A DNA stretch of 64,000 bases, from assembly GCF_964204645.1 (NCBI RefSeq), contig NC_134029.1:14812950-14876949 (forward strand). The letters are read 5' to 3'. Positions 2,411-64,000 of this stretch are shown here, in pieces; positions within the stretch are counted from its first letter, which is position 1, and each line of letters begins with the position of its first letter. The position numbers and the translations under genes are program-made. The DNA is from Tubulanus polymorphus (Eukaryota; Animalia; Nemertea). The notes under the pieces were generated by a model. The model searched no databases and was not told where the DNA came from. It saw only the letters and a program-made list of their open reading frames with translations.

Positions 2411-3800
2411 TTTAGGAAGATAAGATTCCGTTTCATTTTGGGGTTTACTTTTACTTAGTTGTGTTAGTTGTACGCTAAACATTGTTTAGTACTCTTTGAC
2501 TACCTGCCAAGATATGTGTTTATTATTGTATCTCCCGGTAATTATTATGTCTCCCCAGTGAAGGGGAGACATATTTCACTCATCCCCAGTTGAGGGGAGA
2601 CATTTTTCACTGTGTCGTTGTGTGCCATGAGATGTCCCCTGACACATCATTAGTGTGATACAGGCTGCAATTCTTGATGGATTTTTCTCAATCTTAGTGT
2701 GAGGATTGGGGCAGGTGAGATGTCCACCCCGATTAAAAATAAAGGATATCAGCCATCAAACATGGCCATAAGGGCAGCAATCTTGAATTTCTAGTTAGCA
2801 GAATACACTCTTGAATTATTTATAGTCTTTCATGAAATTTAGTGGGTTGGTTTGGAATTGTAAGATGTGTGGCCACATCGAAAATAAAGATAGTCGGTTA
2901 ACACAATACAGCCTTCAATTCTTTTTAGATCTTCATGAAACTCAGTTCGAGCATTGGGGGAGGTGAACTGCCTTTAAATATGGCTTCCAGCAGCCATCTC
3001 GAATTTCTAGATAGTTTGATACGGCCTATAATTCTCAATGGATTTTCATGAAATGCGCTGAGTAGGATTGGCCAGGTAAGATGTGCGCCCCTTATGATAT
3101 CAACCAAATATGGCTGCCACAGTGGCTATCTTGAATTTTCTTGTTAGGCATTTTTAGGCCAGCCGTAGGCTGAGCCTATTACTATTTAAATGGAGCGAAT
3201 TTAAATGACATGGTTTCCAGAGCAAAGTCTCTTTGTCTGTGCAACTGAGCATATATTCATACAAATCATTCATTACAGCATTATCCATTCTCCAAACTCT
3301 ACGTAGCTGAATTTAAAAAGAGGGCCTTGTTAAGATTTATATGAGCTTTTTTTGCGAATATCTGATCGCAAAAATATTGGTTTTGAAAAGCAAATCAGAA
3401 AACAAAGACTCCTCTATGATTGGCTTAGCCGCAGAAATCAGCAGGGGTTAATGTGTACCTGTTTTGTATTTCCGTCGAGTACTGTACCCTTTCCTATGGT
3501 GTTTGCCAATATTTTCTAAATTTGGATTGATCGCCAATGGTTTTTCTATACGACCCGGCCCTGCGGTATTGCATTTAGCCACCGGCGAAATCCGCCATCT
3601 TTTTTCTTGGCCTTCTCGCAGTAGAACGCGTTGGATTTTTTTTGCTGTAAAAATCTGGGAATAAGGATTTTAGGGAGTTTTCACTCTCATAACGGTGAGT
3701 CCGTTCGGTTTGGGGGTTATCCCTGGTTTCTATTTTTCCGTAAGAATTTTATTTACAAATATAATTTGATTGAATCGATTTGATTTGTAACAGGATAATT

Positions 3801-5996
3801 ATGCCACCCCCTCCTAAGGGTCAACATCGTGGCGGGGAGGGATGCGGGCATTTGTTTGGCGCCTGGGACAACCACGATTCGTGTGCGTCGTGCAGGCGCA
3901 AATCCGGTCAAATATGTGCAAGGAGCAATCCTTGCAAGATTTGCGAGGTGTGGTCCGAGGACCTTTGGCTTCGGGCCGATAAGGCTCTTAAACTAAGAGA
4001 TCGTCGTCGAGTTAGCAGGGATTCGTCGGTTTCGTGCCAACCGACGTTTCTAATCCGGTTTCTTATCGTAAAGCGGAGCGGTCGCCGGTCGTTCAGGTAC
4101 GATCGGCTTCCCAACTCCGTTCACCGGGGAGGAACGCTGGTTCACCGGCACCGGTCTCCGGTCATTCACCGGTCTCTGGTCGTTTGGCCGGTTCAGACTA
4201 CATGTTCGGAACCGAGCGCGCGCCGCGGTAGTAATGAACGGCCCGCACCGGTATGGTTGGTACCGGTCCGGTTCGGGCACCAGTCCGGTCCAGACGTCGT
4301 CCGGTTCAAAACATCCGGTACGTTCATCGTCTGATTCTGATCGTCGCTCTGGGGATAGAGCTCGCTCTCCCACTAGATTTAGACGCCGTGAGCGTAATAA
4401 AGGAGCAAGATCTCCTTCTCACAGATCAAGAGGTTTGATCGCGAGAGGGACTACGATGGTTATTGTCGGAAGTTTCGCCGTCGGTCTTCTCATCGTTCGT
4501 CGACGTCGGTTAGCGATGAAGGCGATTCTTCTGGTAGGTCTCGATCCCATTCGAGGGACCGTCACCGAAGTCGGCATGATCGTCGGGATACTGGAAAATA
4601 CCTGACTCAGGAGGATTTCCATGTATTTGAAGAGAAAATTTTAAACTTGTTATCTTCGTCGCAACAAGTCACTGCAACCTCTACAACAGGTAAGCCTATT
4701 CCTGATTGTCCGGTTAGAAGTTCGCCAGCCCACTCAGTTCTTCGGAATTCTGACTCTGAATTCCTGGATGCTGCGGTAGGGTCTGATTTCAATGAGGATC
4801 CGGTCCCAGAAGCGGCAATTCCTTCTGGGGTCGTTCCTGTCGCGAGCAATTGTGGGTTGCCCCAGACGATGGGGGCTTCCCTGGCTCGCAATGTATCTCC
4901 GTCCCGTTCAGTTTTATCCAAACCAGCGGGGGAAATGCCATTTAGAGCGATGATAAGTGAGTTCTTTGTCAAGCACGGGGCAACTCGCACTAAGCCCACA
5001 GCAGCTCCTCTGGTCGGTGAGTCAATGGAAGCTTATCGCCCTCCGGACTACGATCTTAACGTTTTACGGGAATCCTCAGCGGTTTCGAGAGAATGGGCTC
5101 GATTGGATACGCAATTATGGGGTGAATGTCGGCCTGGAACATTTTCATTTCCCCCTCCAGAATGGGGTATGAAATCTGGGAAATATTTTAGTTCAACCGA
5201 TCCACCTATAGGCGCATTTCGCTCGGCGTATTACGCAACTCCAGGTGCTGTGGATCACAGTCATAACTGCCTGGATGCTGATTATACTTTGATCAGCCCG
5301 GATACTGTTACAGCACAGTCGGGTATTCGTTTGCCTAAGTCCGGTTTGGTCGCCATGACGTCAATCCTGGACAATCTTTCCAGGGTTGGTTCGTTTCAAG
5401 ATATGGCACTTAAGGTGTTGACGGGTGAGCTTCGCGAAACTCACGCCGCCGTTCATGCGGGCTCCGACCCAGAGTCAGTTGCCCTAAAACTGGAGGGAAT
5501 GGACCGGATTATCCAATCTTTGGCTCGGTCTGTTTCGCATGTAATTCCGTTGTCGGTTCGGGGTCAGGCTAATCTTGTGTTAGCCTCCCGTCAGTCAGTG
5601 ATGGACTCCAGTTCCAAAGCTCGTCTACCGGATATGGTGTCCAATGCTTTGCTGAGAGCCCCATTGGGGACGTCTTCACGTCTCTTCTCCGGTTGGTGCG
5701 CTCCGGTTTCCGCAGAGCTGAGGAAGATTCAGGAGGTTCAGGCCAAGTCCAACCCCCGAACTCCGTGGAAAAAGCGTTCTGGTCCGACGCCGGCGGCGCA
5801 AGGTTCGGCACGGACGCAAACAGGACCATCTCAAACTTCAGCGCTTTCTCAGGCGGCTTCGGATGCCGGTTGGAGAACTAGCGCGCAACTTCAACAATCG
5901 TGTCCAGCCTCATCCGGTTGTAACAGTTCCGGTTCGTATCGAGGCAAGGGGAAGGCTCCAAAAAGGGGCTCTTCCTTTTGGAAAAACTCGAAATGA
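3801..5996 (+). pseudogene. DIRS gag-like ORF1 (frameshifted)
   Basis: N-terminal Cys/His cluster CGH..DNHDSCASC..C...PC..C..W, an S/R-rich linker broken by frameshifts, then the 449-aa open segment 4647-5996. Confidence 0.75.
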
Positions 5997-6017
5997 ATTC
6001 TTGGGACCAGTGGGAGG

Positions 6018-7272
6018 TTGTCTGCAGCAGGCAGTGGCAGGTCCGACCTTTTTGGAGACGGTTGGCCCTCCCGGGTCGTCTCTCGTGGCTACCGTCTCCG
6101 TTTCCTAAGGCGACCGCGCCTGATGAGGTCACCTCCCGACATGCGGCCAAAACCAGGTCAGGAGGCCTTAATCTCTCCGGCTCTCAAGGAATTGGCCGAG
6201 AAGGGAGCGATAGAACCAGTTTGCAACGAAACTTTTCCCGGCTTGTTTTCTCGAATATTCATGGTACCAAAGGCCACAGGGGGTCAACGGACAGTGATAG
6301 ATCTGTCATCCCTCAATCGGCACCTAGACATTCCAAGGTTCCGGATGACCAAGCCCAAGGACGTGATTCAAGGGCTCCGTCCGGGTCAATGGGCGGCTTC
6401 ATTGGACCTGAAAGATGCTTACTTTCAGGTTCCAATTCACCCAAAATCTCGGCGATTTCTCATGATAAAGTGGAAAGGCCGCCAGTTCCAATTCAGGTCT
6501 CTTCCATTTGGCCTCAGTACGGCCCCGTGGGTATTCACCAAGTTGGTCAAGTCAGTTCAGAAGGTACTTCAGTCAAGGGGTGTTCGACTGTTCGCTTACC
6601 TCGACGACTGGTAAATAGTCGCGAATTCGGCTCAGGAATTGTCGGGAGGCAATGACCTCAGTCTTGGACTTAGTCCATCAGCTAGGGTTCCGCGTAAACA
6701 GGGAAAAATCTCAGTTGACGCCGGCCCAACAGTTCACTTATCTCGGCATGGACTTCGATCTCCGAATCGGCAAAGTCTTTCCGTCTATGGCTCGAGTAGC
6801 CAAACTTCAAGAAGCTGTAGCGGGAGTGTCCACAACCCCGAGAACAGCTCGTTACTGGTCACGGCTTCTAGGCTCCATCAGCTCCATGGGTCTGGTAGTG
6901 CACTTAGGCCGCCTCAGAAGCAGGCGCTTGCAACAATATTGGTAGGTCTTCTGGTCTCAGTCGAAGGGCAACTGGGAGACCTTGATTCCCGTACCTCCAA
7001 CCGATCTAAGTCCGGATCTTCAGTGGTGGGCGGCAACTACGAATCTTCGGCTCGGGGTGTCACTAGCCCCGTTAGAGGCTCCAGTTCGTGTATTCACGGA
7101 TGCCAGTCACCAAGGATGGGGGGCACATCAAGAGAACCGAGTCAAAGCCGGGAGATGGTCTCGCTACGAGGCCACCAACCACATAAATTTCCTAGAAATG
7201 CTGGCCGTGTGGAAGGCCCTGAAGTTCTTTCACAGGAGAGTGGAGGGCCACCACGTTTGGTTAGCCACAGAC
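6018..7272 (+). pseudogene. DIRS reverse transcriptase/RNase H (disrupted)
   Basis: SLDLKDAYFQVPIHP, LPFGLSTAPWVFTK, YLDDW followed by TAA (6612-6614), a +1 frameshift near 6645 and TAG at 6943-6945. RNase H motifs VFTDASHQGWGA and HINFLEMLAV; truncated after WLATD. Confidence 0.93.
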
Positions 7273-7273
7273 A

Positions 7274-7675
7274 TGTCCTGTGCGGGCGTTGTGTTTCTAT
7301 TTAGATCGCTCTGCTTCACGGAGGGGTTCACGGGAGCGGTTATTTATTCCGCTGCTGGATCACCTAAAGGGTGATATTTCGCGGGACACAGTGGCCCGAT
7401 GGGTCTCTTCACTGATCAAGGGCATTTTATTGAAGGAGAATCTTTCCTCGGAGGGAGTGGTTTCTCATCAAGTGAGGTCTATGGCTACTTCCTGCGCAGC
7501 CTTTTCGGGTGCTCCGTTGGAGGAATTCTGTCGGGCCGCCTTTTGGAATTCTCCATCGACATTCACATCATTTTATTTACAGGATGTTTCAGGCCAGTTA
7601 GGCTCATTAGCTTCACTTGGTCCTGTTGTCATGGCTCAAGGTGTCCGTTCTTTCCGATCGCACCCTTTAGTGTAG
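7274..7675 (+). pseudogene. C-terminal half of DIRS tyrosine recombinase
   Basis: CPVRALCFYLDRS...SHQVRSMATS...AAFWNSPSTFTSFYLQDV (H-x-x-R, W and catalytic Y). The N-terminal half is missing. Confidence 0.9.
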
Positions 7676-9468
7676 AATATTTATGTTGCATTATCAGGAT
7701 CACAGGGGGTGTATCCTTGTACATAGTTTGGGCTCATATCTGCAAGTATTAATTTCGCAATATTCTGGGGGGGCCCTGAGCTTGACGGACTCACTGGGGC
7801 CAACAGGTCTTCCCTGTGCTACAGTGCTCCATTCCGTGCTTGGGTAAGTGCTCTCTTTTTCCGTCTTACCTTGCGTTTGAGCGGTGGTTTTTCTATCTAC
7901 CTTTCCCACCATCCTTGTGCTAGGCTAGTCTAGCAAAAACCATAGGAAAGGGTACAGTACTCGACGGAAATATTACAATTTTTGGAACTAAAATTTGTAT
8001 TTCTGAGTAGTACTAACCCTTTCCTATGGTGGGAATCCCGCCCACCTGCCCCGCATAGCTGTTTTTTTTTGGTCTGCTATGACGTAAAAAGATGGCGGAT
8101 TTCGCCGGTGTCTAAATGCAATACCGCAGGGCCGGGTCGTATAGAAAAACCATTGGGGATCAATCCAAATTTAGAAAATATTGGCAAAAACCATAGGAAA
8201 GGGTAAGTACTACTCGGAAATACAAATTTTAGTTCCAAAAATTGTAATTTCTAGATCTAAAATTGTATTTCAAGATCGATTTCTGTGAAAGCTTTTGTTG
8301 ATTTGGTTTTTGGGAGGAATATTTTTAATAGCACTACAGAAAATATCATTGACCGATGTGCAAAGTCCGGAAAAAATAGCTTTTTCTTAAATCGGATAGA
8401 TGACCTTAATATGCTAATTAGCCATATGCTCAAACTACAAATTCAATCAAATTTTATTCTGCATAGAAATATCAAATCCAATTCAATTTTGTTTTATTGA
8501 GCAAATTTCAGAAAATTCTATTCTATTCCGCATTAAAATCAATAAGACCAAGGGAAAAGATTTATCTGAGGTATTTATTCTTGCCAGATCCAGTCGCTGT
8601 CTGTGCTACTTTTGTATTCTACGATTGTATTGTGTAAATTATTAGGTATTGACTCTCAGCTGGGAGTGTATTTTGACAAATTTAAGAGCTATCAATTGGA
8701 TCTGTTTTCTGTATCTGCACGAAGTAGTTACGCGATCGCGTAATGACGTCTTGCGCGAGTTGTTACTTCGCGCAGAATAAACCTGCACGAGCTGTGATGA
8801 ACAGGTGCGTGATCGCGTATTGATGTACTGTACCGCGCGAGTTGTGATGAACAGATTTGACTTTATTCAATTAATTATGCAGCGAACTGTTAAAACATCA
8901 ATATTAATAAAAATAAGATTTCCACTATTTGAATTCGTCAAGAAGGGATATTTAGAAACGTTGTTATTTGTAAATTATCGCTAAAAAAAGCTAAAGATTT
9001 AATGGTTTTGATTTTATATGCCTAAAGACGATGATTGATTACATTGATGTAGTGTATCAAACTTGTAACTTGTAGTGTATCAAAATAGTGATACGGTACG
9101 TGAAAAGTAGCTTAATTACCTTTATCTATTTATTAATCCTAATGTCATGAAATAATCCTGGTCTTGTTATATGATTATATTAGTGTATTCCAACATGTGC
9201 CTAAGACGATGTCCTAACGTAAACTGACCCGTTCTCTAATATTATATTAATTCTATCGCGCGCGCGAACTTAAAGCCCGACGCACACGAGGCAATTTTAG
9301 TCGTAGTGCTGCGACCGATTTTTATCTCACCGAACGCCGCGCACCTCGTTCAAAAATCTAAAAATATAAACCATTTTTATTTGATAAAGCAAAATATCCA
9401 AAACGAAACTACATCTCCTAAACGTCTTAACAAATAAATGTATCTAGGGCACTTATACTAATATAACG

Positions 9469-10035
9469 TTACTTAATGTGCCAATCGTATGCTGACTGAC
9501 AAATTCCGCGGACGACTTCGGACCACCTACACCCTGCCTTGTTCAGTCTAAAATCCGATCGAGGGTTCTTGGATAGCAGGTCTGCAGGCCACCATGGCAC
9601 TCTTTTGGATTCATCACCCTAGCTCGGACAGTTTTTTCGATGCCTCATCATATTTGAATGAAATATCAGCGTGGCACAGAGCGATCTAACTTCATTACTA
9701 TTCAGATCACGGATCTCCATGTTTTCTTTTCATGGAAATAACTCACTCATTTTCGGCAAATCTCCGTTAGTTTCCTTTGATGCCGCCGTACCCGCTGGTG
9801 CCGAAAGCGCGTGCTCCACAAATTTCTGCCGAATGTCATTCGTTGCACCTTCTGTTACCTTTGTGGAAAATGTGAGGGATTCCAGTTTGTTTTTGTTGTG
9901 TTGGTTCTTTCCTTCCTCTTATCCGCAAAGAATGACCGCATATCATAATTTCTTCGAAAATTTCTCAGCATACTTCGTTGCCATATGCCACGCATGTCGT
10001 AAGTCTGCAGTCATTTTGTTTGAGTCCGTATCCAT
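9469..10035 (-). pseudogene. NRF1/erect wing/P3A2-like DNA-binding-domain gene, intronless, 4 in-frame stops
   Basis: 189 codons without frameshift: ...DLPKMSELFP*KENMEIRDLNSNEVRSLCATLI...PS*GDESKRVPWWPADLLSKNPRSDFR...WSEVVRGICQSAYDWH, versus NRF1 ELPPL...VDKMTQAQLRAFIPEML...PGWGKESCKPIWWPEDIPWANVRSDVR...WTQALRTIVKNCYKQH. Confidence 0.85.
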
Positions 10036-10151
10036 GTTGTTAATTGTTGGTCGTTGAGCGTTGGTCGTTTTCCGTTGTAAATGATGTTGTAAGTGATGTT
10101 AAGTGTTAAAAGAATCAAAGAATACCGTTTAATGTGGTGAGAAATTGCAGA

Positions 10152-10159
10152 TTTTTATA
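10152..10159 (-). promoter_or_regulatory. Candidate TATA box of the NRF1-like gene
   Basis: TATAAAAA on the minus strand, 117 bp upstream of the ATG at 10035. An AATAAA lies on the minus strand near 9376-9381, downstream of the stop. Confidence 0.4.
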
Positions 10160-10267
10160 CGGTTCTTCTATCATTGTCTTCAGAATTTCTAGACCAATTA
10201 TTTTACATAGGTCTTCTAGACACGATAATTATGAAGAAATTAGGGTTCCTGGTACAATTGGCAAACA

Positions 10268-10968
10268 TTGTGCTGGTGTTTTAAAATAAATGGGCGAATG
10301 GGATTGCTAATTATGCACATGCCACAATTTCTGCTTCGTTTTACATTTTGGCTACTTATTGTAAGAAAATTACTCCCATTTGAATCTAATTCTAAAGAAT
10401 TAGGTACCGATTATAATGATTTCATTGTTCGTTTCCTCAGGAGCCAACACTGGACGGGTACATCAGAGTTTAAAAATGCATTTACATAGTAGTTTATGCT
10501 AGACTTAAAATTAGTTAACAGCAGAAATTCATAACAAATGTGTATATTCATAGTAATCAAGTTATAGCCAGACAGGCATATTCCATCCGACAGCGCCAGG
10601 TGCCTTCAGAAAAATGCAAATGATAAATTTCAAATATTTTCATATATATATAATGCAGGAAGGAGATCGAATTTATGGCAAAAAATTAGGGCTTCCATCT
10701 CATGCCGGGTAATTAAGTAAATTCCAAATAGAAATGCTGGCCAACCCATTTTCTTAGCTATCGGGTCTAAAGATTACTTGTTTATAGAATTATTTGAATA
10801 CTTTATAAATAGGTGCCCGGCTATGTGTAAAATTAACTTAGGAAAAATGAGAAAATATCATTTTTGTCTTATATCCCGCAATAAATTGAATCCAACAACT
10901 AAAAAATGCTAACTACAGACCACGAAAAGAGATATTTTTCTCTTCAATCTGTGGGTGTTCAACGTTAA
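10268..10968 (+). pseudogene. Highly decayed Crypton/DUF3504-like tyrosine recombinase relic
   Basis: Collinear motif remnants across frameshifts: FWLLIVRK..FESNS..IVRFLR..SEFK; VYARLK; L*-QTGIFHPTAPGAF; SHAG*L; IELFEYFINRCP; FCL; YFSLQSVGVQR*. The catalytic R and the HxxR/Y region are not visible. Confidence 0.45.
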
Positions 10969-12378
10969 GGTTTAACGTGTTATTTTAATATTTTTTATAT
11001 ATAATGTTCGCGTATAATGTTTATTCAAAGTGTTTACATTTGTATGATTTCATAAGTAATGAACAGAATTGTTATATAATACTCGTCTTTTCTCTTGATC
11101 AGTATACGTGTATTCAATGTTCTCTGCTAAACTGTCGATTTTCTCGTCAGTTTGTCATTGTCGGAAAATCCTTTGAAAAAAGTATCACTTGAAATCCCGC
11201 CCGAAAAATGATCTCGCTAAATAGAGGTAAAATAAAATCCATGCGTCCGCAACAGAAGTCTTTGATAGTACGAAGTACCGGGTCTAATAACCTCGCGCAA
11301 CTGATCATGAAAATATCCTAGCTGCGCGAAGTAACTACTCGCGCAACTGATCATTATGCGATCGCGTAACTGGTTCGCGCAGATCGTCAGTTTCTGACCT
11401 TCATATACCTGAATTTAACCCACAGAATGCATCATCATTTGCCATTTCATGAAAAGCTGACAGGCTGGCCATAGTGCCCCTTGGGGCTCTTGGTTTTTTA
11501 ATTTATTTACTTGACTGTTGATTAACAGAGAGCTGTATATACTTGAGATGAAACTGGAATTCTTAAATGACTGAATTCTTGGCGATCAATCTGAAATCCA
11601 AGTGATTCATGAAAGAGCTCAACGACTTTGGGATCTTAGATTCTTAACTGAAAAATGTCATTTTTTAATTTTTTTGTGGATTCCTTTGAATTCTGCCTAA
11701 AGAAATTTTTTTCATATTTTCCCTTTACCCCACCAAAGATTTTCTCCTAAAATCCCGAAATCCAAGTAATTAAGAAAAAATTGCCTTAGCATGATACATT
11801 CTTGATTGATTTACATGAAACTTGATGTTAGGATTGAGGAAGGTAGGCTGTCCATCATTATCGAAAATGGAGGTCATCCGCCATAACATATGGCTATCCA
11901 TGAAACTCGATGTGAAAGTAAAGACCATGTGTGTTAGACTTGAACCAATAATTCTTACAATCCCAATGAACAATTAAGTAAACCCTCCTGTCAGGAAGTA
12001 TACAATATGTGTGTTAACCTGTCTTCAATTTCTTGCCCTCACACCGTTTGCTTACCCGGGGAAGACATGACGTAGCCTCATTCTAGTTTTGGACTGTATC
12101 AATGTAGTAATTTTTACAGTCATTTTGGCTTGTATCAATGTTCTAATTTTAGGTCGTGGAGTGTACCAAATTTGCTGGGGGACCATTCATTTCTTATGTA
12201 CGCTTTATGGGAGGGGAGGGGTAAGTGCAATGCGTACTGTAATGCCTTAAGTATATGAAGAAATGGTAATTTTGCGTACAGGGGGTACATTTTTTTCAAA
12301 CTCGGTACACAAGCAGGGCATTACTTAAGACAGAACCCTATTCAATTTAGTTGATGTGAATGCAACTGTTGATCAATC

Positions 12379-18833: not shown

Positions 18834-19106
18834 TTTGAAACTAAAATTTTTCCTAGTAGTACTTACCCATTCCTGTTGTCGTAGTCCCACCACCCTCCTA
18901 CCCCGCTTAGTGGTTACCTTGCAGCTGCATTAGCAGAAAAAAGATGATGAATATCGCCTGTGACTAAATGCAATACCACAGTACCACGGGCTGGTAAAAA
19001 ATCTCTGGTGATCCATCCAAATTGAGAGAATATTAGCAAAAACCACAGGGAATGGTAAATAATACTTGGAAATACAAATTCTAGTTCCAAAAATTGTGAC
19101 ATTTCT
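18834..19106 (+). mobile_element. 3'-terminal fragment (half ICR + right ITR) of a diverged DIRS relative
   Basis: Aligns to 7981-8252: AAACTAAAATTT..AGTAGTACT-ACCC-TTCCT, AAAAAGATG..CTAAATGCAATACC..GGAAATACAAATT-TAGTTCCAAAAATTGT. Confidence 0.85.
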
Positions 19107-19798
19107 GTCTTAATTTTCGATCAAATTATTTTCTCCCATCATTTGAATTCAATCCATTACAGTTTTCACTCTATTTAGCATTGGTTTACATCTATGACGT
19201 CATGCCAATGCTAGTAAAATGGATCGAAAGTTGTAGCCAAAAAAAAAGCGCTGACTCTCCTCGTTTTCATCGTAACTTCAAATTGAAACTCCATTCACGT
19301 TAGACATTAGACACAGCCGAAAATCACTAAACATAGCGTTACCATATTTTAGCTGATGGGTTGTCGTTGTCCGTTCGTTCATTTCTCCATTCGTGCGTCT
19401 GTCAACTTCTTCAAATTGCTACTAGTCGTACAGTTTTAATCGGATCAATTCCAAATTTGGTATGAATGTTCTGTGGACCAAGGCCTATGAAGTAACAGAA
19501 CCATTTTTTAGATTCGTCCCCCAGGGGCGCCCCTGGGGATGGAGTGTCTATTTCTTCAAATTGATACTAGTCCTACAATTTGATTCGGATCAATTCCAAA
19601 TTTGGTAATATGTAATAGATGAAATCTAAGTGAAGAACGTTTCGTCGCAGCATTATTTGATTGTTCATACTAAGAAATTATAGCGATTCGAAAACAACCT
19701 CGTTCACGTACGTGGTGTAACGAAATCACTCAAAATATTTCAGTGACTAGGAACACAGAGAAAATTAATTGTTGTCAATGAAACTGGAAAGAAACTTA

Positions 19799-21960: not shown

Positions 21961-23330
21961 TTTAGCCCACTTGGGACTTAAGTCCCAGCGGGCTATTGCG
22001 TTTACTTTTCGTCCGTCGTCCATTCGTCCGTCGTAGCGTCCGTCGTAGCGTCCGTCCGTCCGTAGACGGAATCCAGTTATTTTGGGAAGTTTTATTTTTT
22101 GAAGACGCTTCAAGGTAATGTCTTGATATTTGGTTTATACATGTATCTACCCTAGACACATCTTCAGCCCAAAAACTGGCCCTGTCAGAATCAAGATGGC
22201 TGACTAGCAGCCATTGTTGTTCGTCAAAATCAGCACTTTTTACACTTTTTGAACTTTTTGAGGGAAATTTTGAAGACACTTAAATCAATTACCTTGATCT
22301 TTCGTATATATTTGAATCCCTCAAGGGCCCATCATCATAAGAAAAATTGGGTCGATCGGACTCAAGATGGCCGTCCTATGACATTTTTAGTGCCCAAAAA
22401 TGTCAATTTTGGCCAAATTCTGAGTCCTGTAGCTACCTACTGGTTTGCCATTTCTCATTGCAATTTGTGAACGGTATTCTTTGGAAAGGGATGTTTTCAC
22501 CTGAGCCAGGTATTTTTGATCGGCCAATTATGACGCAATTGGCGGCCATCTTGGTACCATCAGTACTCATTCGTGGGTGGGAAAAAGTTTTTCCACATTA
22601 TATTGACACCTAAGCATATTTTGTTACCACAATCAATTGCAAAGTTGTAGCTCATGACATTGTCTATGATTGTGGTGAGTTTTAAGGACATTAGTTATTC
22701 TATATGGTCACCAGGGGGCGTTGAATAGTAGAATAACTTAGTATTTCCTTATTAGATTGGTACCTAGGCATATTTTGTTACCATGATCAATTGCAAAGTT
22801 GTAGTTTATGCCATGTTCTATGAATGTGGTGAGTTTCAAGGTCATTAGGTTTTGCATATGGTCACCAGGGGGCATTGAATTGTAGAATTACTTAGTATTT
22901 CCATATCAAATTGGTAACGAGGCATATTTTGTTATCACAATCAATTACAATTAGCTGCTGACGTGTTCTATGATTGAAGTGAGTTTCAAGGTCATTGGTT
23001 TTTGTATATGGTCACCATGGGGCGTTGAATATTGAAATTGTTAGATTGTTGAGCATTGGAAACCACTTCCCAAGTGGGCGTGGTGTCCCTGGACCCTTAG
23101 TTTAAAATTGGCTTGAAGATTGGGTCCGGGGAGATGTCCACCCCTATTGAAAAAAATGTCATTGGTGATCAAATATGGTTGCCATTGGGGTGGCCATCTT
23201 GAATTTCTTGTTTGCAGCCCGCAATTCTTGATGGATTTCCACAAAATTTGGCGTTGAATATTGAAATTGTTAGATTGTTGAGCATTTGAAACCACTTCCC
23301 AAGTGGGCGTGGTGTCCCTGGACCCCTAGT
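21961..23330 (+). mobile_element. HINE family A with internal ~154-bp tandem repeats
   Basis: 5' palindrome AGCCCACTTGGGACTTAAGTCCCAGCGGGCT, a (GTCC)-rich microsatellite, 154-bp units starting at 22614, 22768 and 22922, and a 3' CCCAAGTGGGC end at ~23070 repeated at ~23300. Other copies start near 17990, 43168, 52658, 61395 and 63340. Confidence 0.8.
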
Positions 23331-27740: not shown

Positions 27741-29155
27741 AGGCCAGTCGTAGGCTGAGCCTATTACTATACAAATGGAGCGAATTTAAATGACATGGTT
27801 TCCACACAAAAGGCTCTTTTGCTTGCCAAGTGAGGGCATATTCGAACAAATCACGTATTTAAGCGTAATCCATTCTCGGAATCGTAGCGAGCAGAATTTT
27901 GAAATAGGGTCTCATAAAAATGTTTTCTGCATTTTTCACGAAAGTTAAATCGGGAAAATTTCAATTTTTATCAGCCAATCAGGAAGTTGTGTCTTCCCTG
28001 TGATTGGTTTATCTGAAAATATCAGCAGCTGTTCACGTGAATTATCGCGATTTCATTACTGGCGCTTTTGCGCATGACGTCATGTATCAACACGCGACAA
28101 TACTTCCGCGTTCGCTACGTGTTCGCTGATTGGCCCATTTACTGGGAAATTCCACAGAAGCCTAATGTGGTTTGTTACAAGCGCTGTGATTGGCCCGACC
28201 CGATTCCGGCATGGCTTTAGCTTAGTGGGTTCGAATCCCTTGACGGGTGAAGATGATGGATCCTATCAATATCTATTGAAACAAATAAGTTTCCCGGTTG
28301 GGCAGCCGCGGATATCTACCGGAAGTGTTCCGGTTCGATATTTCGAGGTTTCTTTGAATTTTGGAGTGATATTGAAATCCGGTAAATACCAGCGGTAGAT
28401 TGTGAAAACCCATTGCATGATATTTGTATTACTTAATCAACGAAAAGCGTCGGGGCCGCGCCAGGAGTTTTCGTGATTCAAGTAGCGCAATAGCCTACTT
28501 CTTCGTGTTCGTCCACCTCAATTTTCACTCCGCCGATCTCTGACACGGCTCTGTCCCCGTCGGCGCTGTGATTGCACTTTCGTACCACCAAAATTTTTTA
28601 TTTCTATATCAGGGAGGTCTGGAGAATAAAAAAGTCAAAATTTGGATATCACATAGGCCTGATTTCATCGAATAAGTCGACCATGGTCGTTACGTTTCCG
28701 TGCTTATTACCACCTAAAACCGTCTGAACAATTTTGTCACAACCAACATTTCAACAGAGGGTATTTTTGACCAGGCAATTATGACGCACTTGGCAGCCAT
28801 CTTGGGGTCATCAGTACTCATTCGTAGGTGGAAAAAAAGTTTTTCCACATCATAATTGATACTTAAGCATATTTTGCTACTATAATCAATTGGAAAGTTG
28901 TAGCTCATGACATGTTCTATGATCGAGGTGAGTTTCAAGCTCATTGGTTTTTTTATGGCCACCAGGGGGCGTTGAACAATACAATAACTTAGTATTTCTA
29001 TATTACATTCGTTCCTGCTGTCTGTGTTAACACACGATTTTACTATGTAAATGATATTGAGCAGGGAGTGTATATTGATAAATATAACCCACAGATTACA
29101 TCATTTATAAAAAGCAAATCTGACAGGCTGGCCATTGTGCCCCTTGGGGCTCTTG
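27741..29155 (+). mobile_element. HINE family B, apparently uninterrupted copy
   Basis: Both termini present (AGGCCAGTCGTAGGCTGAGCCT ... CAGGCTGGCCATTGTGCCCCTTGGGGCTCTTG), inserted in a TTATT run. Confidence 0.75.
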
Positions 29156-30039
29156 TTATTACTTTGTCACACTATTTTCACTAAAAGAACATAGGCTTTT
29201 TTACCTTGCCACAGTTGCCAATACAATCTGTATGATATCCTTCAGCTCACTTCGATCTACAAATACTCTGTGCGTATTATCATGAATCAACGTTACAAAA
29301 GCACTTTCGGGCCGTAAACATCAAAAATTGGGCCCTATTCAATGAGACCACATGTTTTTCTGAGTCGTCATCCCGAAATCCAACGTAGGTTGCTCGTCAC
29401 TTCGATTATCAATTCAAGTGTAAATAAACAAATTAATTGCCGCAAGACGTTACATTCAGCCGCGGTCCTCAAACAGTAAATTTTGACAATTAGCCATTTT
29501 CTTCATCAGTACACTTAACCGACCAACAGTATATAATTTACTGCTCTAAATATTATAAGCTTTGTCAAGCTGGAAAGATCGATGAATCAACTTGTGTCTT
29601 TACATCCTCGTTCCGCGGAACCGCTGCGGGGTTCTCTTGCCATGAGAATCAAAGCAAGTACATATAAATTTATTACACAGCCATCTCAAAATGGTCACTT
29701 TTCAATAGTTGACTTTTAGGAACGATGTGTTTTGAGAGTAGCTGCTATGGTAGGAGTTACTATCACAAAGTCACTGTTTACAGACAGGTGGTTTTACAGT
29801 CACCTCTACTGCTAGTGTGCACTATCGAAACCAGATGTTTTAAAATGGTCACTTTTCTATAGTAGACTCTTCGAAACAGCCACTATATAAAACCAACCGA
29901 ATTGAAAGGAATACTATTTCAGAGTGACTGTTTTGAAATGAATACTACTGGAAAAGTAGCCGATATCGTTAATTGCTTATTGTTCTCAAGTGGCTACTAA
30001 GTAGAAGTAGACGTTTGGGCTCAAAAGTGCGATAGACAT

Positions 30040-32238
30040 GTTCTTGGATTCCGCCTTTCATATTATCTGTGCCATCATAACACTGTCCTCTACAGTCAAC
30101 GATCTCAAGATGAAGATTACCAACTGCCTCTTGGAGCAAGTCAGCCAATTGCTTACCAGTTGTACTGCTGCATCTGATGAAACCTATAAACGACTCTTAT
30201 ATTTCCATTTTAGAATCCACGTAGCACAAAATTAAAGCCATTTGTTCTAGGTTACCACAGTCCTGTGTTTCATCAGCAATGATTGAAAAGAAAAGAAACA
30301 CGTATCTCAGTGACAAGCTGGCTCAATCCATTAACGAATACACTCTATTATATCATATTGGATTGTTTTAGAACGATATGAGGCATTCTTTGGGACAACT
30401 TTGAAATGATTGGCAAGTACCTGGTCACCAGCTTCACAATGAAATTCTAACAGCTTTTTGAATCTTAAGATGCTTGGCATCTTCCCGATGACCTCATAGT
30501 GCTATGTATTGTTTTCCACAAAAAACTACAGTTTTCACAAGAGAAACAAGCACTAATCGATTTCTGGCAATGACATGTTGATTCCTCATTTACACTAAAG
30601 GTATGACCAAAGAAAACACATGATCGGCAAAACGCTCCAGATAGTTTTTGAGTGTATGCCAGCCAGGGGTACCGTATTTTCCGGTGTACAAGTCGACCTG
30701 GTGTATAAGTCGAGGTCAAATTTTCAGTTTAAAAAGTTGTGCTAGGGCTATAGTCGGTGTATAAGTCGAGTCGCTTCTTCATGTGTTTACATATGTCACA
30801 TTGAAAACAGTGCCGATGTCATCCTCATAGTAGTTGTGAGTCTTTACCACTGTTTGCATTATTAAATCATTGGGATCTGTTGTTTCTAATACTAAATTAC
30901 CGGATTAGTGCTCATTGTTTGTTTGTATCCACGTGTTGAATGTATAGTGTATACATTGAATGCCGTGCGCCTGTAGTCTAGTATTAGACTGTAGTCTAGT
31001 ATTAGACTGTAGTCTAGTATTAGACTGCTGTGTATTGATTATTGGCACGCTGCCACAGCATCGCGGCTTATATAAACACTGTACAATGAATATACGCGGT
31101 TTTCTTTCTTTTTTGATTTTTAACATTAGTTAATTTTGAAACATTTCCAAACTATAAGAAACTATTTTTATCAACATCCTAAATTCAAATTGGTATATGA
31201 GTGTAGCCTAACATAAATTTATATTCCATTTCATCATGGCGACCTTGAACTCTAAACATCGTCAGTTTAAAACGATATCGAAAGTGTAGCCGGTGTATAA
31301 GTCGACCTACGTTTTTTGGACATGATTTTTGGTCTCAAAAACTCGACTTATACACCTGAAAATACGGTAGTCCTGCAACCACGATTGCCTAAATGACCGC
31401 TTTCCAGTTTTTGGAAAGACATATGTAGCAGGAGGGATCCACAATCTGTTTAAACATACATATTTCTCAGCATCGCTCATCGTGGGCACGGTTTCAATAA
31501 AAAATCCTATGTCGTAAGTAGATATTGTCGGGCATTCTGCTGTGACCAGTTTCCCACTGGTTCCCTGCTCGGCTTCTAGTACAGTTGCCCTGCTATTTTC
31601 ATCATGCGTTTTCGAGCTCGGTTTCGGTATATTTTCTGACGTTTTTGCCATACATGTATCACTATGAACTACAAGTACGAAAAAAAAAGTTTGACTAAGG
31701 CCCTATCTTGTGATATAAACCGAAGGACAGGTTACCTTATGAGTGGACGTGATCGGGGTACACAACTTCTTTAGGTCTCAGATTGTGCCAGGACAAGCCT
31801 GCTTGATGACATTTTAATCCTTTAGGACGCTTTAAGCCTACGAAAGATCAATAACATATTTACCTGCGTCAAAACGCTTTGCCTTGGTGAAAAAACAATC
31901 GATAGTTGCCTGGCATATTGCGGCCACCATGCAGACGATGCGTGCCAACGGACAGACCCACGTGGCAGCTAGAGAGGGGTGTCCAGTAAGCAAAATTCGA
32001 AAACTGAACCAACAACCCATAGTACAAAAGAGGTATTTTTGTTGAACCATTATAGCGTATATAATTAGACAAAAACTACGACCTGAGAGGGTAATTGCGC
32101 ATCTGATATTTGTAGGATCAGTGTAAAGTAAACCTTTGTCTTTTCATATGCTTGTAGTGTTTTGGCAACTTTTTAATTTTTTTAAGCAGCTCTGACTGTC
32201 GCACTTGGGGCAATTGCGACAGCGTGGATCCGCACCTG
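30040..32238 (-). mobile_element. hAT transposon relic (ZnF-TTF + DUF4371, THAP12/ZMYM1-like transposase), 3'-truncated
   Basis: Minus-strand fragments YDIG...YVFPKTGKRSFRQSWLQDYPWLAYTQKLSGAFCRSCVFF, FKKLLEFHCEAGDQVLANHF..NASYRSKTIQ and FSIIADETQDCGNLEQMALIL. Terminus CAGGTGCGGATCC at 32238. Confidence 0.85.
30672..31367. mobile_element. Tc1/mariner-type MITE inserted in the hAT transposase
   Basis: TA|CCGTATTTTCCGGTGTACAAGTCG ... CGACTTATACACCTGAAAATACGG|TA. Confidence 0.9.
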
Positions 32239-49629: not shown

Positions 49630-50640
49630 TGGTTACTGGGAGTCACTGAGCACACAAAGTCCCTCTGCCCTTATTGCAGCTCGAGGTCGGAGTCGTCCCC
49701 TGGCCGGTTGCCCCTCGTCTACCAATTCTCCGTCGGATTCATCTTGTTCTGAGGCAGTTTGCTCAGCGATAGTCAGTGTCTCAGCACGAGCAGGGGTTTC
49801 GGCTTGGTTAATCCTTCCATTCCGAGGGTCCGATTCCACCGGAATTAGCCGATCTCTTTCCTCCTCCGAGCTCGAAGGACAAGAACTATGTTTTTGTGCG
49901 ACTGGGTCATGCTTCATGGTGCCATGCCTAGTGGAGGGAGGTTTGTTCAGGGGGACCTGAGGATTTTCACCATCATCCGACCTTATTATGGCCGGTTTCA
50001 TGCCGTTGAAGTGGACAACTTTGGTCTTGGTCTCTCCTAACTGAGTCTCCACCCGATTATTTACCTCAGTTAGGTGCAGTGTGACCACAAACGGGCCATA
50101 CCACTTCCTATGGAATTTCTGGGCCTCCACAGGCTTGACATAGTGACTGTATAGCCAGATTATATAGTCAGACTGTAGCCATTAAAGGCAGATTCAATTA
50201 GGCCCGCGACACGCCGCACATTCCATTGTGAACTGACTTGGCCATGGACTACTCACCACCATATCAATTGGAAGACTTATTTCTTATGTCCAAACATGAA
50301 AAAGGATGGGGTCTTCTGCGTTGATGACTGGACACTCGATGGGAATGCTATTAAGCATCCACGAGTGGTCATCACAGTCTTTCCCATTCTCATCAACCGT
50401 CAGTCAGCATCGCTTTGATTGATTTTTTGAAGTTTTCAACTTTTCCGTTCCTATGAGGGTGGAAATTGCGTTGGATACAGCATCCGAAATTGAGGATGGG
50501 TCCTCTATCATCAACGACGCCCTGGCTGTGTCCGGGAGATTTACCCCTGCCAGGAACGGTCCCTAGCCAGTTCGTCCTGCACTTCCCATGTGGTAGGGTA
50601 TGTGCATAAGGCCAGTTCTTGTAATTCATCTGCGTAGTGT
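49630..50640 (-). mobile_element. Ty3/Gypsy integrase relic
   Basis: FHPHRNGKVENFKKSIKAML, SVQSSTQKTPSFFMFG..SLPIDMV, and the GPY/F module KFHRKWYGPFVV...VVHFNGMKP. Confidence 0.85.
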
Positions 50641-61394: not shown

Positions 61395-62575
61395 TTAGCC
61401 CACTTTTTAGCCCAGCGGGCTATTGCGTTCACTTTTCGTCTGTCGTCCGTCCGTCCGTAGACGGAATCCAGTTATTTTGGGAAGTTTTGAAGACGCTTCA
61501 ATGTAATGTCTTGATATTTGGGTTACACATGTATCTACCCTAGACACATCTTCAGCCCAAAAACTGGCCCTGTCAGAATCAAGATGGCCGACTGGCAGCC
61601 ATTGTTGTTCACCAAAATCAACACTTTTTACACATTTTTGAACTTTTTGAGGGAAATTTTGAAGACGCTTTGATCAATTACCTTGATCTTTTGGATGTAT
61701 GTGAATCCCCCCAGGGCCCATCAGCATAACAAAAATTGGGTCAATCGGACACAAGATGACCGTCCTATGACCTTTTTAGTGCCCAAAAATGTCAATTTTG
61801 GCCCGAATTCTGAGTGCTGTAGCTCCCTACTGGTTTGCCATTTCTCATTGCAATTTGTGATGGGTATTCTTTGAAAAGGGATGTTTTATACCTGAGACAG
61901 GTATTTTTGATCAGCCAATTATGACGCAATTGGCGACCATCTTGGTGTCATAAGCACTCATTCGTAGGTGGGAAAAAGTTTTTCCACATTATATTGTTGA
62001 TATTTAAGCATATTTTCTTACCACAATCAATTGGAAAGTTGTAGCTCATGACGTGGTTTATGATTGTGGTGAGTTTGAAGGTCATTGGATTTTGTATATG
62101 GCCACCAGGGGGCGTTGAATAATACAATATCTCAGCATTTCTTTATTATATTAGACCTATGCATATTTTGCAACCACAATCAATTGGAAAGTTGTAGCTC
62201 ATGACATCATCTATGATTGTTGCGAGGTTTTAAGGACATTAGTTATTCTATATGGTCACCAGGCGTTGGATAGTAGAATAACTTAGTATTTCCTTATTAT
62301 ATTGGTACCTGGGCATATTTTGTTACCATGATCAATTGCAAAGTTGTAGTTCATGACATGTTCAATGATTGTGGTGAGTTTCGAGGTCATTAGGGTTTTG
62401 AATATTGTCACCAGGGGGGCGTTGAATAGTAGAATAACTTAGTATTTCAATATCAAATTGGTAACGAGGCATATTTTGTTATCACAATCAATTACAAAAT
62501 CGTAGCTGCTGACATGTTCTATGATTGTGGTGAGTTTCAAGGTCATTGGTTTTTGTATATGGTCACCACGGGGCG
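61395..62575 (+). mobile_element. HINE family A copy with ~154-bp tandem units, 3'-truncated
   Basis: High similarity to 21990-23030 with one additional tandem unit. Confidence 0.8.
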
Positions 62576-64000
62576 TAAGGTTTAACGAAAGGTTTTTCCC
62601 TCGAACAATCGTTTATTCGATTAGAGTTGTTTCAATTTGAACAAAATTTTCTCAGGACAAAAAGTTTTTCATTTCAACAATAATATAGCTTTATTCGAAC
62701 ACATTTTCTTGTCAGAGCGAAGAAAAGTTTTCGTTCGCACAAAAAGCGTATTGTTCGATCAAACAGAATTGTTTTCATTTGAACAAAATTTCAGAGCATT
62801 AAGTATTTATTTGTTCGAGCAGGTACATTGTTTCATCGAAGCATTTTTCGTTCCGAAAAGCAAAATTTTGGTGAAACTAAATAGCCTTTTCATTATAATA
62901 ATGAGTAATCTTTATTCAAACAAAATAAACTTCTCATTCGAACATAAATAATAATATGAATCTGGGTTTACTTTGTATCCAATATCCATATCATGCCTTT
63001 TAGGTTGAAGCCCATCATCCATGTTTCCGGCCATGTACGGCACACAGCTTGTTTAGGTCGTTTTTGAGCCGATTAATAGACAAATGGAGCAAATGACATG
63101 GTTTGCAGATGAATGGCTGCAACTGATTATATTCATGCAAATCATGCATCTATGGGTTCATTCTCCAATTCCGACAAAATTTTGAAAAAGGTCCTCATTA
63201 GAATATATAGAATGTTTTTTGCGATAATCTGAACACATCAGTATTGGTTTTCAAACCCCGATCAAAAAGCAATCTCCTTTTCGATTGGCTTAGGCACACC
63301 AAGCAGCAGGTGTTCATGTGGACGCATGGTATTGTCTACTCAAGTCCCAGTGGGCTATTGTGTTCACTTTTTATCTGTTGCCCGTCTGTTTGTCCATTCC
63401 TCTGTCGATAGATGGAAACCAGTTATTTTTTAAAGTTTTGAAGACGTTTCAATGGATTGTCTTGATTTTTCGTTTAGAGCTATATCTACACTAGATACAT
63501 CTTCTGCCTAAAAACTGGCCTGATCCGAATCAAGATGGCCGACTGGCAGCCATTATTGTTTGCCAAACAGACAGTGGTTTCTATTTGTCTACACTAGAGC
63601 AAACACCGCTATCCTCAGATAGTGTTAAAATCAATACTCCACCAGAGTAAAGGCATTTCCTATCTGTAACAACCTTGTGGTACCAACACGCGCAGTAGTG
63701 ATATATCGTATGTTATATACATTGAATTTCTCTTGGACCGCACATTTAAAAAAAGTTGAAGTTAATACAATTCAAGACTCAGCGAATTTCTTCTGTTCGT
63801 CAACAACTTGTTGGCAATCAAACTGTTGTGTGCTTTCAAAAATTATCGAGAATTTTATTTAATCATATATTTTTTATTCAGCCACCTATCTTCACTTTAT
63901 AAGCCTAGCTGTGAATTGTGCAGTTACAAATTGATATACACTACTGAATCCAAAAAGGGCCTACACGTAATCAATTGAATAACAGGCTATAGGATAAGTC

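Follow-up and report, generated by a model that had tools for sequence, protein, structure and literature searches.

Does a mobile element that encodes a relative of the transcription factor NRF1 also carry, at its own ends, the sites that this protein would read? The question is raised by an insertion in the genome of the nemertean Tubulanus polymorphus, which lies in a 64,000-nucleotide stretch of contig NC_134029.1 (referred to throughout as the window, with positions counted from its first letter). An earlier note had described arrays of a TRCGCGA half-site near both ends of the element and had proposed that they are cognate sites for the element-encoded protein, such that host methylation could switch the element off directly. 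The window is AT-rich and repeat-rich, and its CpG depletion is patchy (observed/expected 0.3-1.4 per kb). Evidence on other copies comes from reads and contigs of four public runs (X1, X2, X3 and X5) compared with the window.

A non-autonomous transposon in a high-copy repeat

The left half of a high-copy host repeat (8563-8685, + strand) is interrupted at position 8685 and resumes at 11412-11492, and X5 read depth is about 1000-2900 in these flanks compared with 20-106 in the intervening DNA. Uninterrupted copies of the repeat are present at 1-175 and 28985-29159. An empty-site joint from 8678 to 11412, in which seven letters are shared by both sides, is found in 495 reads of X5, whose source is the host repeat in its numerous other copies, not necessarily this locus, and also in contigs of X1 and X3. 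The unbroken repeat copies and the X5 joints together define the insertion as 8686-11411 (2,726 bp), flanked by a target-site duplication AATTTAA (8679-8685 and 11412-11418, + strand). A duplication of 8 bp or 9 bp would need one or two mismatches, respectively. Sola3 elements have a TTAA target and GAG..CTC ends, and a Sola3-type assignment was rejected because the right end does not fit.

The interior of the element is fully covered by reads and contig pieces diverge from the window by 0-9%, and the element therefore belongs to a multi-copy family. No transposase was detected in the element by a six-frame Pfam scan with stops read as X, in which PF10491 was the sole match above cut-off. The copy is a dead, non-autonomous DNA transposon in which no transposase is detected and the NRF1-like gene is broken.

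Several other repeats are seen in the window. The very high-copy repeat that hosts the insertion occupies 8300-8685, 11412-11492, 1-175 and 28985-29159, and its reads contain tandem units of 32-42 bp near 8463-8507; Rfam gave two weak matches in it, far under cut-off, so that it is not a known RNA gene. A GC-rich retroelement lies about 400 bp to the left of the transposon (3463-8267), with a second end fragment at 18834-19109, and we take it to be DIRS-type from its gag-like, RT/RNase H and tyrosine-recombinase frames and its inverted end repeats. Copies of a dispersed element, within which units of about 150 bp are tandemly repeated, lie at 22049-23031 and 61444-62576, with further pieces at 28749-29017. 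Open frames at 31307-31702 and 49633-50181 (both - strand) presumably resemble a hAT-type N-terminal fragment and a Gypsy-type integrase end, respectively.

Organization of the element ends

The left terminus (8686-8712, + strand) starts GAGCTAT, and the right terminus (11385-11411, - strand) starts CAGGTAT when read inward, such that in this one copy the right end begins with CA and the left end with GA. The terminal 27 nt of the two ends agree at only seven positions, five of them in the first seven. There is no true terminal inverted repeat in the present copy, and decay of an old copy is possible. Immediately inside are two subterminal inverted arms, 63 nt at the left (8713-8775, + strand) and its counterpart at the right (11322-11384, - strand), which are 86% complementary and contain five sites each. 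The first site is positioned exactly 30 bp inside each end, though the terminal 27 nt are unrelated.

In X5, X2 and X3 the read depth over 11225-11360 exceeds that of the interior, and the right arm is common to shorter or related elements. An X2 contig of depth 292 contains the right arm minus four single nucleotides, each of them missing from a spacer, and most X2 interior bins are below 20. A commoner relative thus bears the right array with shorter spacing. This variant fits a loose-geometry reading of the half-sites, and it equally fits transposase sites.

Two arrays of TRCGCGA sites

A motif scan allowing up to one mismatch shows exactly nine sites at the left (8716-8840) and six at the right (11293-11381), in agreement with the approximate counts of the earlier note for 8713-8855 and 11293-11384. 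The left-array sites start at 8716+, 8729+, 8736-, 8752+, 8768-, 8784+, 8806+, 8813- and 8834+, with gaps of 6, 0, 9, 9, 9, 15, 0 and 14 bp, and the right-array sites at 11293-, 11323+, 11339-, 11355+, 11362- and 11375-, with gaps of 23, 9, 9, 0 and 6 bp. Each array has five exact TRCGCGA matches, compared with means of 0.31 (left) and 0.26 (right) in 1000 local dinucleotide shuffles per array, in which the maximum was 3 and none reached 5. With one mismatch allowed, the nine left sites compare with a shuffle mean of 3.0 (0/1000) and the six right sites with 2.3 (10/1000). The whole window contains 17 exact matches against 5.55 expected, ten of which are inside the two arrays, and no further 143-bp stretch in it has more than three sites.

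The inverted-pair geometry that had been reported is present: positions 8728-8743 form a 16-bp palindrome, three inward pairs abut without a gap, and two further inward pairs are 9 bp apart. The 9-bp gap occurs five times with differing sequence, so that the spacer length is kept and the spacer sequence is not. Every TRCGCGA-type site has two CpGs.

Some sister copies have an additional site-bearing unit in the right array, evident from a joint of 11308 to 11271 in 31 X5 reads and two X1 contigs. In the window, 11268-11274 is a degenerate seventh right-hand site with three changes, two of them CpG-type, and at the equivalent point of their extra unit the sister copies have a complete site. A lone perfect TACGCGA site (11008-11014, - strand) lies just 5' of the TATATAAA stretch and, at a distance of about 1 kb, upstream of the start codon of the NRF1-like gene, where it may possibly serve in self-regulation of that gene.

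The NRF1-like pseudogene and its relatives

The pseudogene (9436-10035, - strand, ATG at 10035) consists of about 190-200 codons in a single frame. It contains stops at codons 31, 39, 102, 139 and 189 (five in 200 codons) and no frameshift; the stop at codon 189 may be the natural end. The translation matches Pfam PF10491 with an E value of 2.9e-7 (30.9 bits, cut-off 23.5, model positions 72-205 of 213) and the NRF1 crystal structures 8K4L and 8K3D at about 4e-5, which improves to 1.4e-10 with a two-sequence profile; the element does, as had been claimed, encode an NRF1-like protein. Its layout is probably a dimerisation domain and, after it, a DNA-binding domain, with no activation tail. The base-reading residues R206, N242 and R244 of NRF1 are kept as R117, N157 and R159, and S245, D246, K253 and W258 are identical in the alignment. 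K221, G220 and G223 are changed, and the position of W224 is a stop in the window copy and TGG in 17 of 30 reads. Downstream of the gene, the stretch 9236-9352 includes six CG units (9256-9267), the read depth of the bin approximately doubles, and the stretch may be common to another repeat.

Sister copies provide information on how the gene has changed within the family. Among the 24 contig pieces shown of 2391, 16 are inside the element and 12 of these are gapped. The six that are more than 90% within the gene have gap totals of 27, 12, 21, 12, 27 and 3, all divisible by three and reflecting about 3-4 distinct events, and the six that are mostly outside it have totals of 2, 2, 1, 8, 10 and 7, none divisible by three. 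Because the listed in-gene totals are all divisible by three, the sequences are suggestive, not strongly, of selection on the gene within the family.

A search of 1.84 billion protein representatives returned an intact 211-residue relative, P0002 (31% identity, E value 5e-13), which derives from one 1,184-bp contig, keeps the equivalents of R206, N242 and R244, and matches PF10491 with 54.9 bits (model positions 34-207). The other of the two representative matches, P0003, is a long leucine-rich-repeat protein in which 32 residues are matched, and is spurious. Word-based protein searches gave nothing past P0002 (0 of 71 candidates with P0001, 1 of 84 with P0002, this being P0002 itself, and 0 of 5953 longer candidates), which argues weakly against fused forms of the NRF1-like protein. 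The sole metagenome locus, L001 (75 stretches), was discarded, as it consists of GC-rich bacterial DNA in which a short peptide matches by chance. Look-alike clusters in the ESM Atlas, with 96 and 101 members of about 210 residues from arthropods and molluscs (score 0.89), are leads only. A structural model of P0002, of low confidence (mean pLDDT 46, about 60 over residues 1-69), predicts a helix-strand-strand-helix N-terminus, at most a hint of the MADS-like dimerisation domain of NRF1; a Foldseek search with this low-confidence model ranks 8K4L first at an E value of 0.04, and the VIA comparison of its residues 1-72 with NRF1 101-171 (Z 4.8, rmsd 4.0, 69 aligned) is level with unrelated folds.

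Correspondence between the sites and NRF1 binding

NRF1 reads the half-site TGCGC with R206, N242 and R244, and its DNA-binding domain alone binds a half-site (PMC10810270). The TRCGC core of the array motif is either this TGCGC or the tolerated variant TACGC, a coincidence that chance would give in 1.1% of 7-mers overall and in 6.6% of the 7-mers with two CpGs. With TACGC in both halves NRF1 binds at 1.31 uM compared with 0.31, the mildest of seven symmetric double changes in Table 2 of the same source. The double mutants TGCAC and TGCGT are weakly bound and TATGC binds at 4.4 uM, and it is to these three that the decayed array sites correspond.

The geometry is different. The canonical palindrome GCGC-NN-GCGC has no match anywhere in the window, arrays included, and the comparison with the palindrome bound by NRF1 needs correcting in orientation as well: in the NRF1 target GCGCA/TGCGC the T's are central, whereas the close pairs of the arrays face inward (TRCGC-GATC-GCGYA), the opposite way. 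Pairs in the NRF1 orientation do occur, with 9, 9, 14, 23 and 9 extra bases, and human NRF1 affinity drops 3- to 14-fold with spacers of 3-7 bp (PMC10810270). Known NRF1 contacts do not account for the motif's 3' GA, which is conserved. A reading with C and G swapped, in which CGCGA/TCGCG mimics GCGCA/TGCGC, is ranked lower, since the retained R206 requires a purine following the T. The view of the arrays as cognate to the element protein is thus favored by the conserved base readers and by the match of TRCGC to the NRF1 half-site or its tolerated variant, but not by the pair geometry, which is unlike that of NRF1.

CpG decay and methylation

The imperfect sites had been ascribed to CpG transitions, and this is the case for four of the five; the fifth, a T>C change at 8834, had been overlooked and is not of this type. 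Four in five is by itself not significant (p 0.05-0.13 at assumed rates of 0.35-0.45), and 56 of the 60 CpG positions within sites are intact, with four mutated. At two of the four CpG-type sites sister copies restore the consensus, with a G at 8719 in 32 out of 38 reads and a C at 11357 in 117 out of 135, which shows that both changes are derived in the window copy. The other two transitions are not among the best 40 of 606 variant positions by support.

Decay of this kind is more widespread than the sites. Among the best 40 of 606 variant positions by support, 39 are within the element; at 20 of these most reads differ from the window, and eight of the 20 are CpG losses. Outside the arrays, six of 18 such majority variants in the same best 40 of 606 are CpG losses (p 0.0002-0.002 relative to the CpG share of positions). 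In nineteen pairs of window-internal repeats, CG>TG/CA changes (83/273) exceed GC>AC/GT changes (57/335) about twofold, and the CpG observed/expected ratio of the element is 1.34. CpG decay is therefore not a mark of the sites, as had been supposed, since it runs throughout the element and in the window repeats. The CpG hypermutability of this dead copy is real and general, and fits some past methylation. Because the loss is element-wide, it provides no evidence of a methylation switch.

The switch itself, as originally proposed, is nonetheless plausible by analogy, since in the mouse NRF1 occupies retrotransposons that lack methylation and loses the competition where they are methylated (PMC12420836). 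With two CpGs per site and a methylation-sensitive host NRF1, the putative binding should become weaker on methylated ends.

What reads the arrays?

The most likely scenario, to which we assign a probability of about 0.55, is that the arrays are putative binding sites for the NRF1-like accessory protein of the element itself, which would act in a manner similar to TnpA of Spm. Each DNA-binding domain would read one TRCGC half-site, and the probable N-terminal dimerisation domain would allow the protein to coat and bridge the arrays. It could then be an accessory factor for a transposase provided by a larger relative, organizing the ends and/or holding the ends and the gene promoter in an open state, in the way that TnpA acts on Spm. 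The parent may, more tentatively, have been an animal Kyakuja/KDZ-type element.

Transposase sites are usually located in subterminal mirror arrays near element ends, and the main alternative is that the arrays here are sites for the family transposase of an autonomous relative, with the NRF1-like gene being captured cargo with another job or none. The constant distance of 30 bp between each mirror array and its end is consistent with this, as are the sharing of the right arm with the commoner relative, the departure of the pair geometry from that of NRF1, and the frequency of repeated short subterminal motifs in DNA transposons without a known NRF1-like gene; by our reading of PMC12730594, the 5' ends of hAT7 and Kyakuja carry such motifs. 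This would leave unexplained why the motif contains an NRF1 half-site with its tolerated purine variation (1-7% by chance) and why the frame and base-reading residues of the gene are kept, and we consider it rather unlikely, although the two roles can be compatible if the protein recruits the transposase.

Host NRF1/EWG/P3A2 could read the arrays instead and activate the unmethylated element, as for IAP in mouse, the element's own gene then being incidental or a competitor. In the germline of the mouse, unmethylated retrotransposons are bound and activated by NRF1 (PMC12420836), and its DNA-binding domain by itself binds a half-site (PMC10810270); however, the canonical palindrome is absent from the window, the nearest same-orientation pairs have an 11-bp spacer where human NRF1 is weakened already at 3-7 bp (PMC10810270), and the arrays are at both ends rather than at the promoter end alone, all of which make this improbable. 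We regard as very improbable that the arrays have no protein partner and arose neutrally, through duplication in place together with gene conversion between the ends. The tandem-duplication joint in sister copies and the 86% likeness of the arms are in keeping with such a history, but the sites alternate in orientation, the spacers hold their length and not their sequence, the indels among those listed fall in spacers and not in sites, and the first site is 30 bp from both ends despite the unrelated terminal 27 nt.

If the arrays are indeed read by the element's own protein, this would represent an animal equivalent, built on NRF1, of the helper proteins by which plant transposons regulate themselves. 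It would provide a testable link between transposon activity and host CpG methylation through NRF1, a textbook methylation-sensitive factor, and would give a role to many unannotated short NRF1-like proteins, with a bearing on the origin of NRF1. As this copy is dead, its value rests with the family. A broader scenario, possible if doubtful, is that an animal KDZ/Kyakuja-type lineage encodes a minimal NRF1-type factor that binds end arrays of CpG half-sites as a methylation sensor or for anti-silencing. The many stand-alone NRF1-like proteins of arthropods and molluscs, about 210 residues long, would then be proteins of transposons of this kind, and an exchange of NRF1/EWG itself with these elements, or even its derivation from them, is conceivable.

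Relationship to known systems

The element protein resembles NRF1/EWG/P3A2 (PF10491; 8K4L, 8K3D; PMC10810270) in its linker and DNA-binding domain match, in R206, N242 and R244, in the TGCGC half-site and, as predicted for P0002, in a helix-strand-strand-helix N-terminus. It differs in its size (about 190-200 residues, no activation tail), in being encoded by one unbroken frame in a mobile element, in the changes at K221, G220 and G223, and in the sites, which lack the GCGCATGCGC palindrome and form pairs that are inverted or 9 bp further apart. Among the literature matches listed, no paper describes an NRF1-like gene in a DNA transposon; families of this sort may already have entries in Repbase, Dfam, subscription journals or bioRxiv supplements.

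P and Galileo elements have 7-bp duplications, CA-type ends and subterminal repeats, and they and hAT7 normally have real terminal inverted repeats. The present copy differs in this, with 7 of 27 terminal positions matching, and decay of an old copy is possible. The hAT7 group shares with it the 7-bp duplications, CA-type ends and subterminal repeats (PMC12730594). Cryptococcus KDZ1 has 8-bp duplications and long terminal inverted repeats (10.1101/2024.08.15.608186).

The ends are compatible with the fungal Kyakuja elements of the KDZ group. In PMC12730594 these have 7-bp duplications, CA..TG ends and no terminal inverted repeats, and among the six rows listed the 5' starts are four CAC, one CAG and one GAG. 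The element here has the 7-bp duplication that Kyakuja calls for, as judged from one insertion only, no true terminal inverted repeat, a CA-type end at the right (and one listed Kyakuja family starts GAG), and a second, non-transposase gene tied to methylation, which in the fungi is TET/JBP. Described Kyakuja elements are fungal, 16-23 kb among the rows listed, and have a KDZ transposase; this one is from an animal, is 2.7 kb, lacks a transposase and bears an NRF1-like gene. No KDZ transposase with CxC domains was detected in this copy, as expected of a non-autonomous element. Membership of Kyakuja/KDZ, judged from the ends of one copy, has in our view a little less than an even chance.

In plants it is well established that an element can encode a regulator of its own which reads motif clusters at the element ends (TnpA, VANC). 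EnSpm elements have CAC..GTG termini and a 3-bp duplication (PMC12730594), and with its 7-bp duplication and its GAG and CAG ends the present element is not a member of Spm/CACTA, and is at most TnpA-like in its working. Arabidopsis TnpA binds clustered CpG-containing motifs at Spm ends, leading to local demethylation and activation (10.64898/2026.08.24.746577). With TnpA of Spm/CACTA and VANC of VANDAL, as described there, the element has in common a candidate accessory factor of its own and dense clusters of short CpG motifs at both ends. TnpA is of plant origin and transposase-derived, whereas the protein here belongs to a host transcription-factor family. TnpA also strips methylation from its targets, which is the reverse of a simple switching-off by methylation, and by this precedent the arrow between binding and methylation can run the opposite way.
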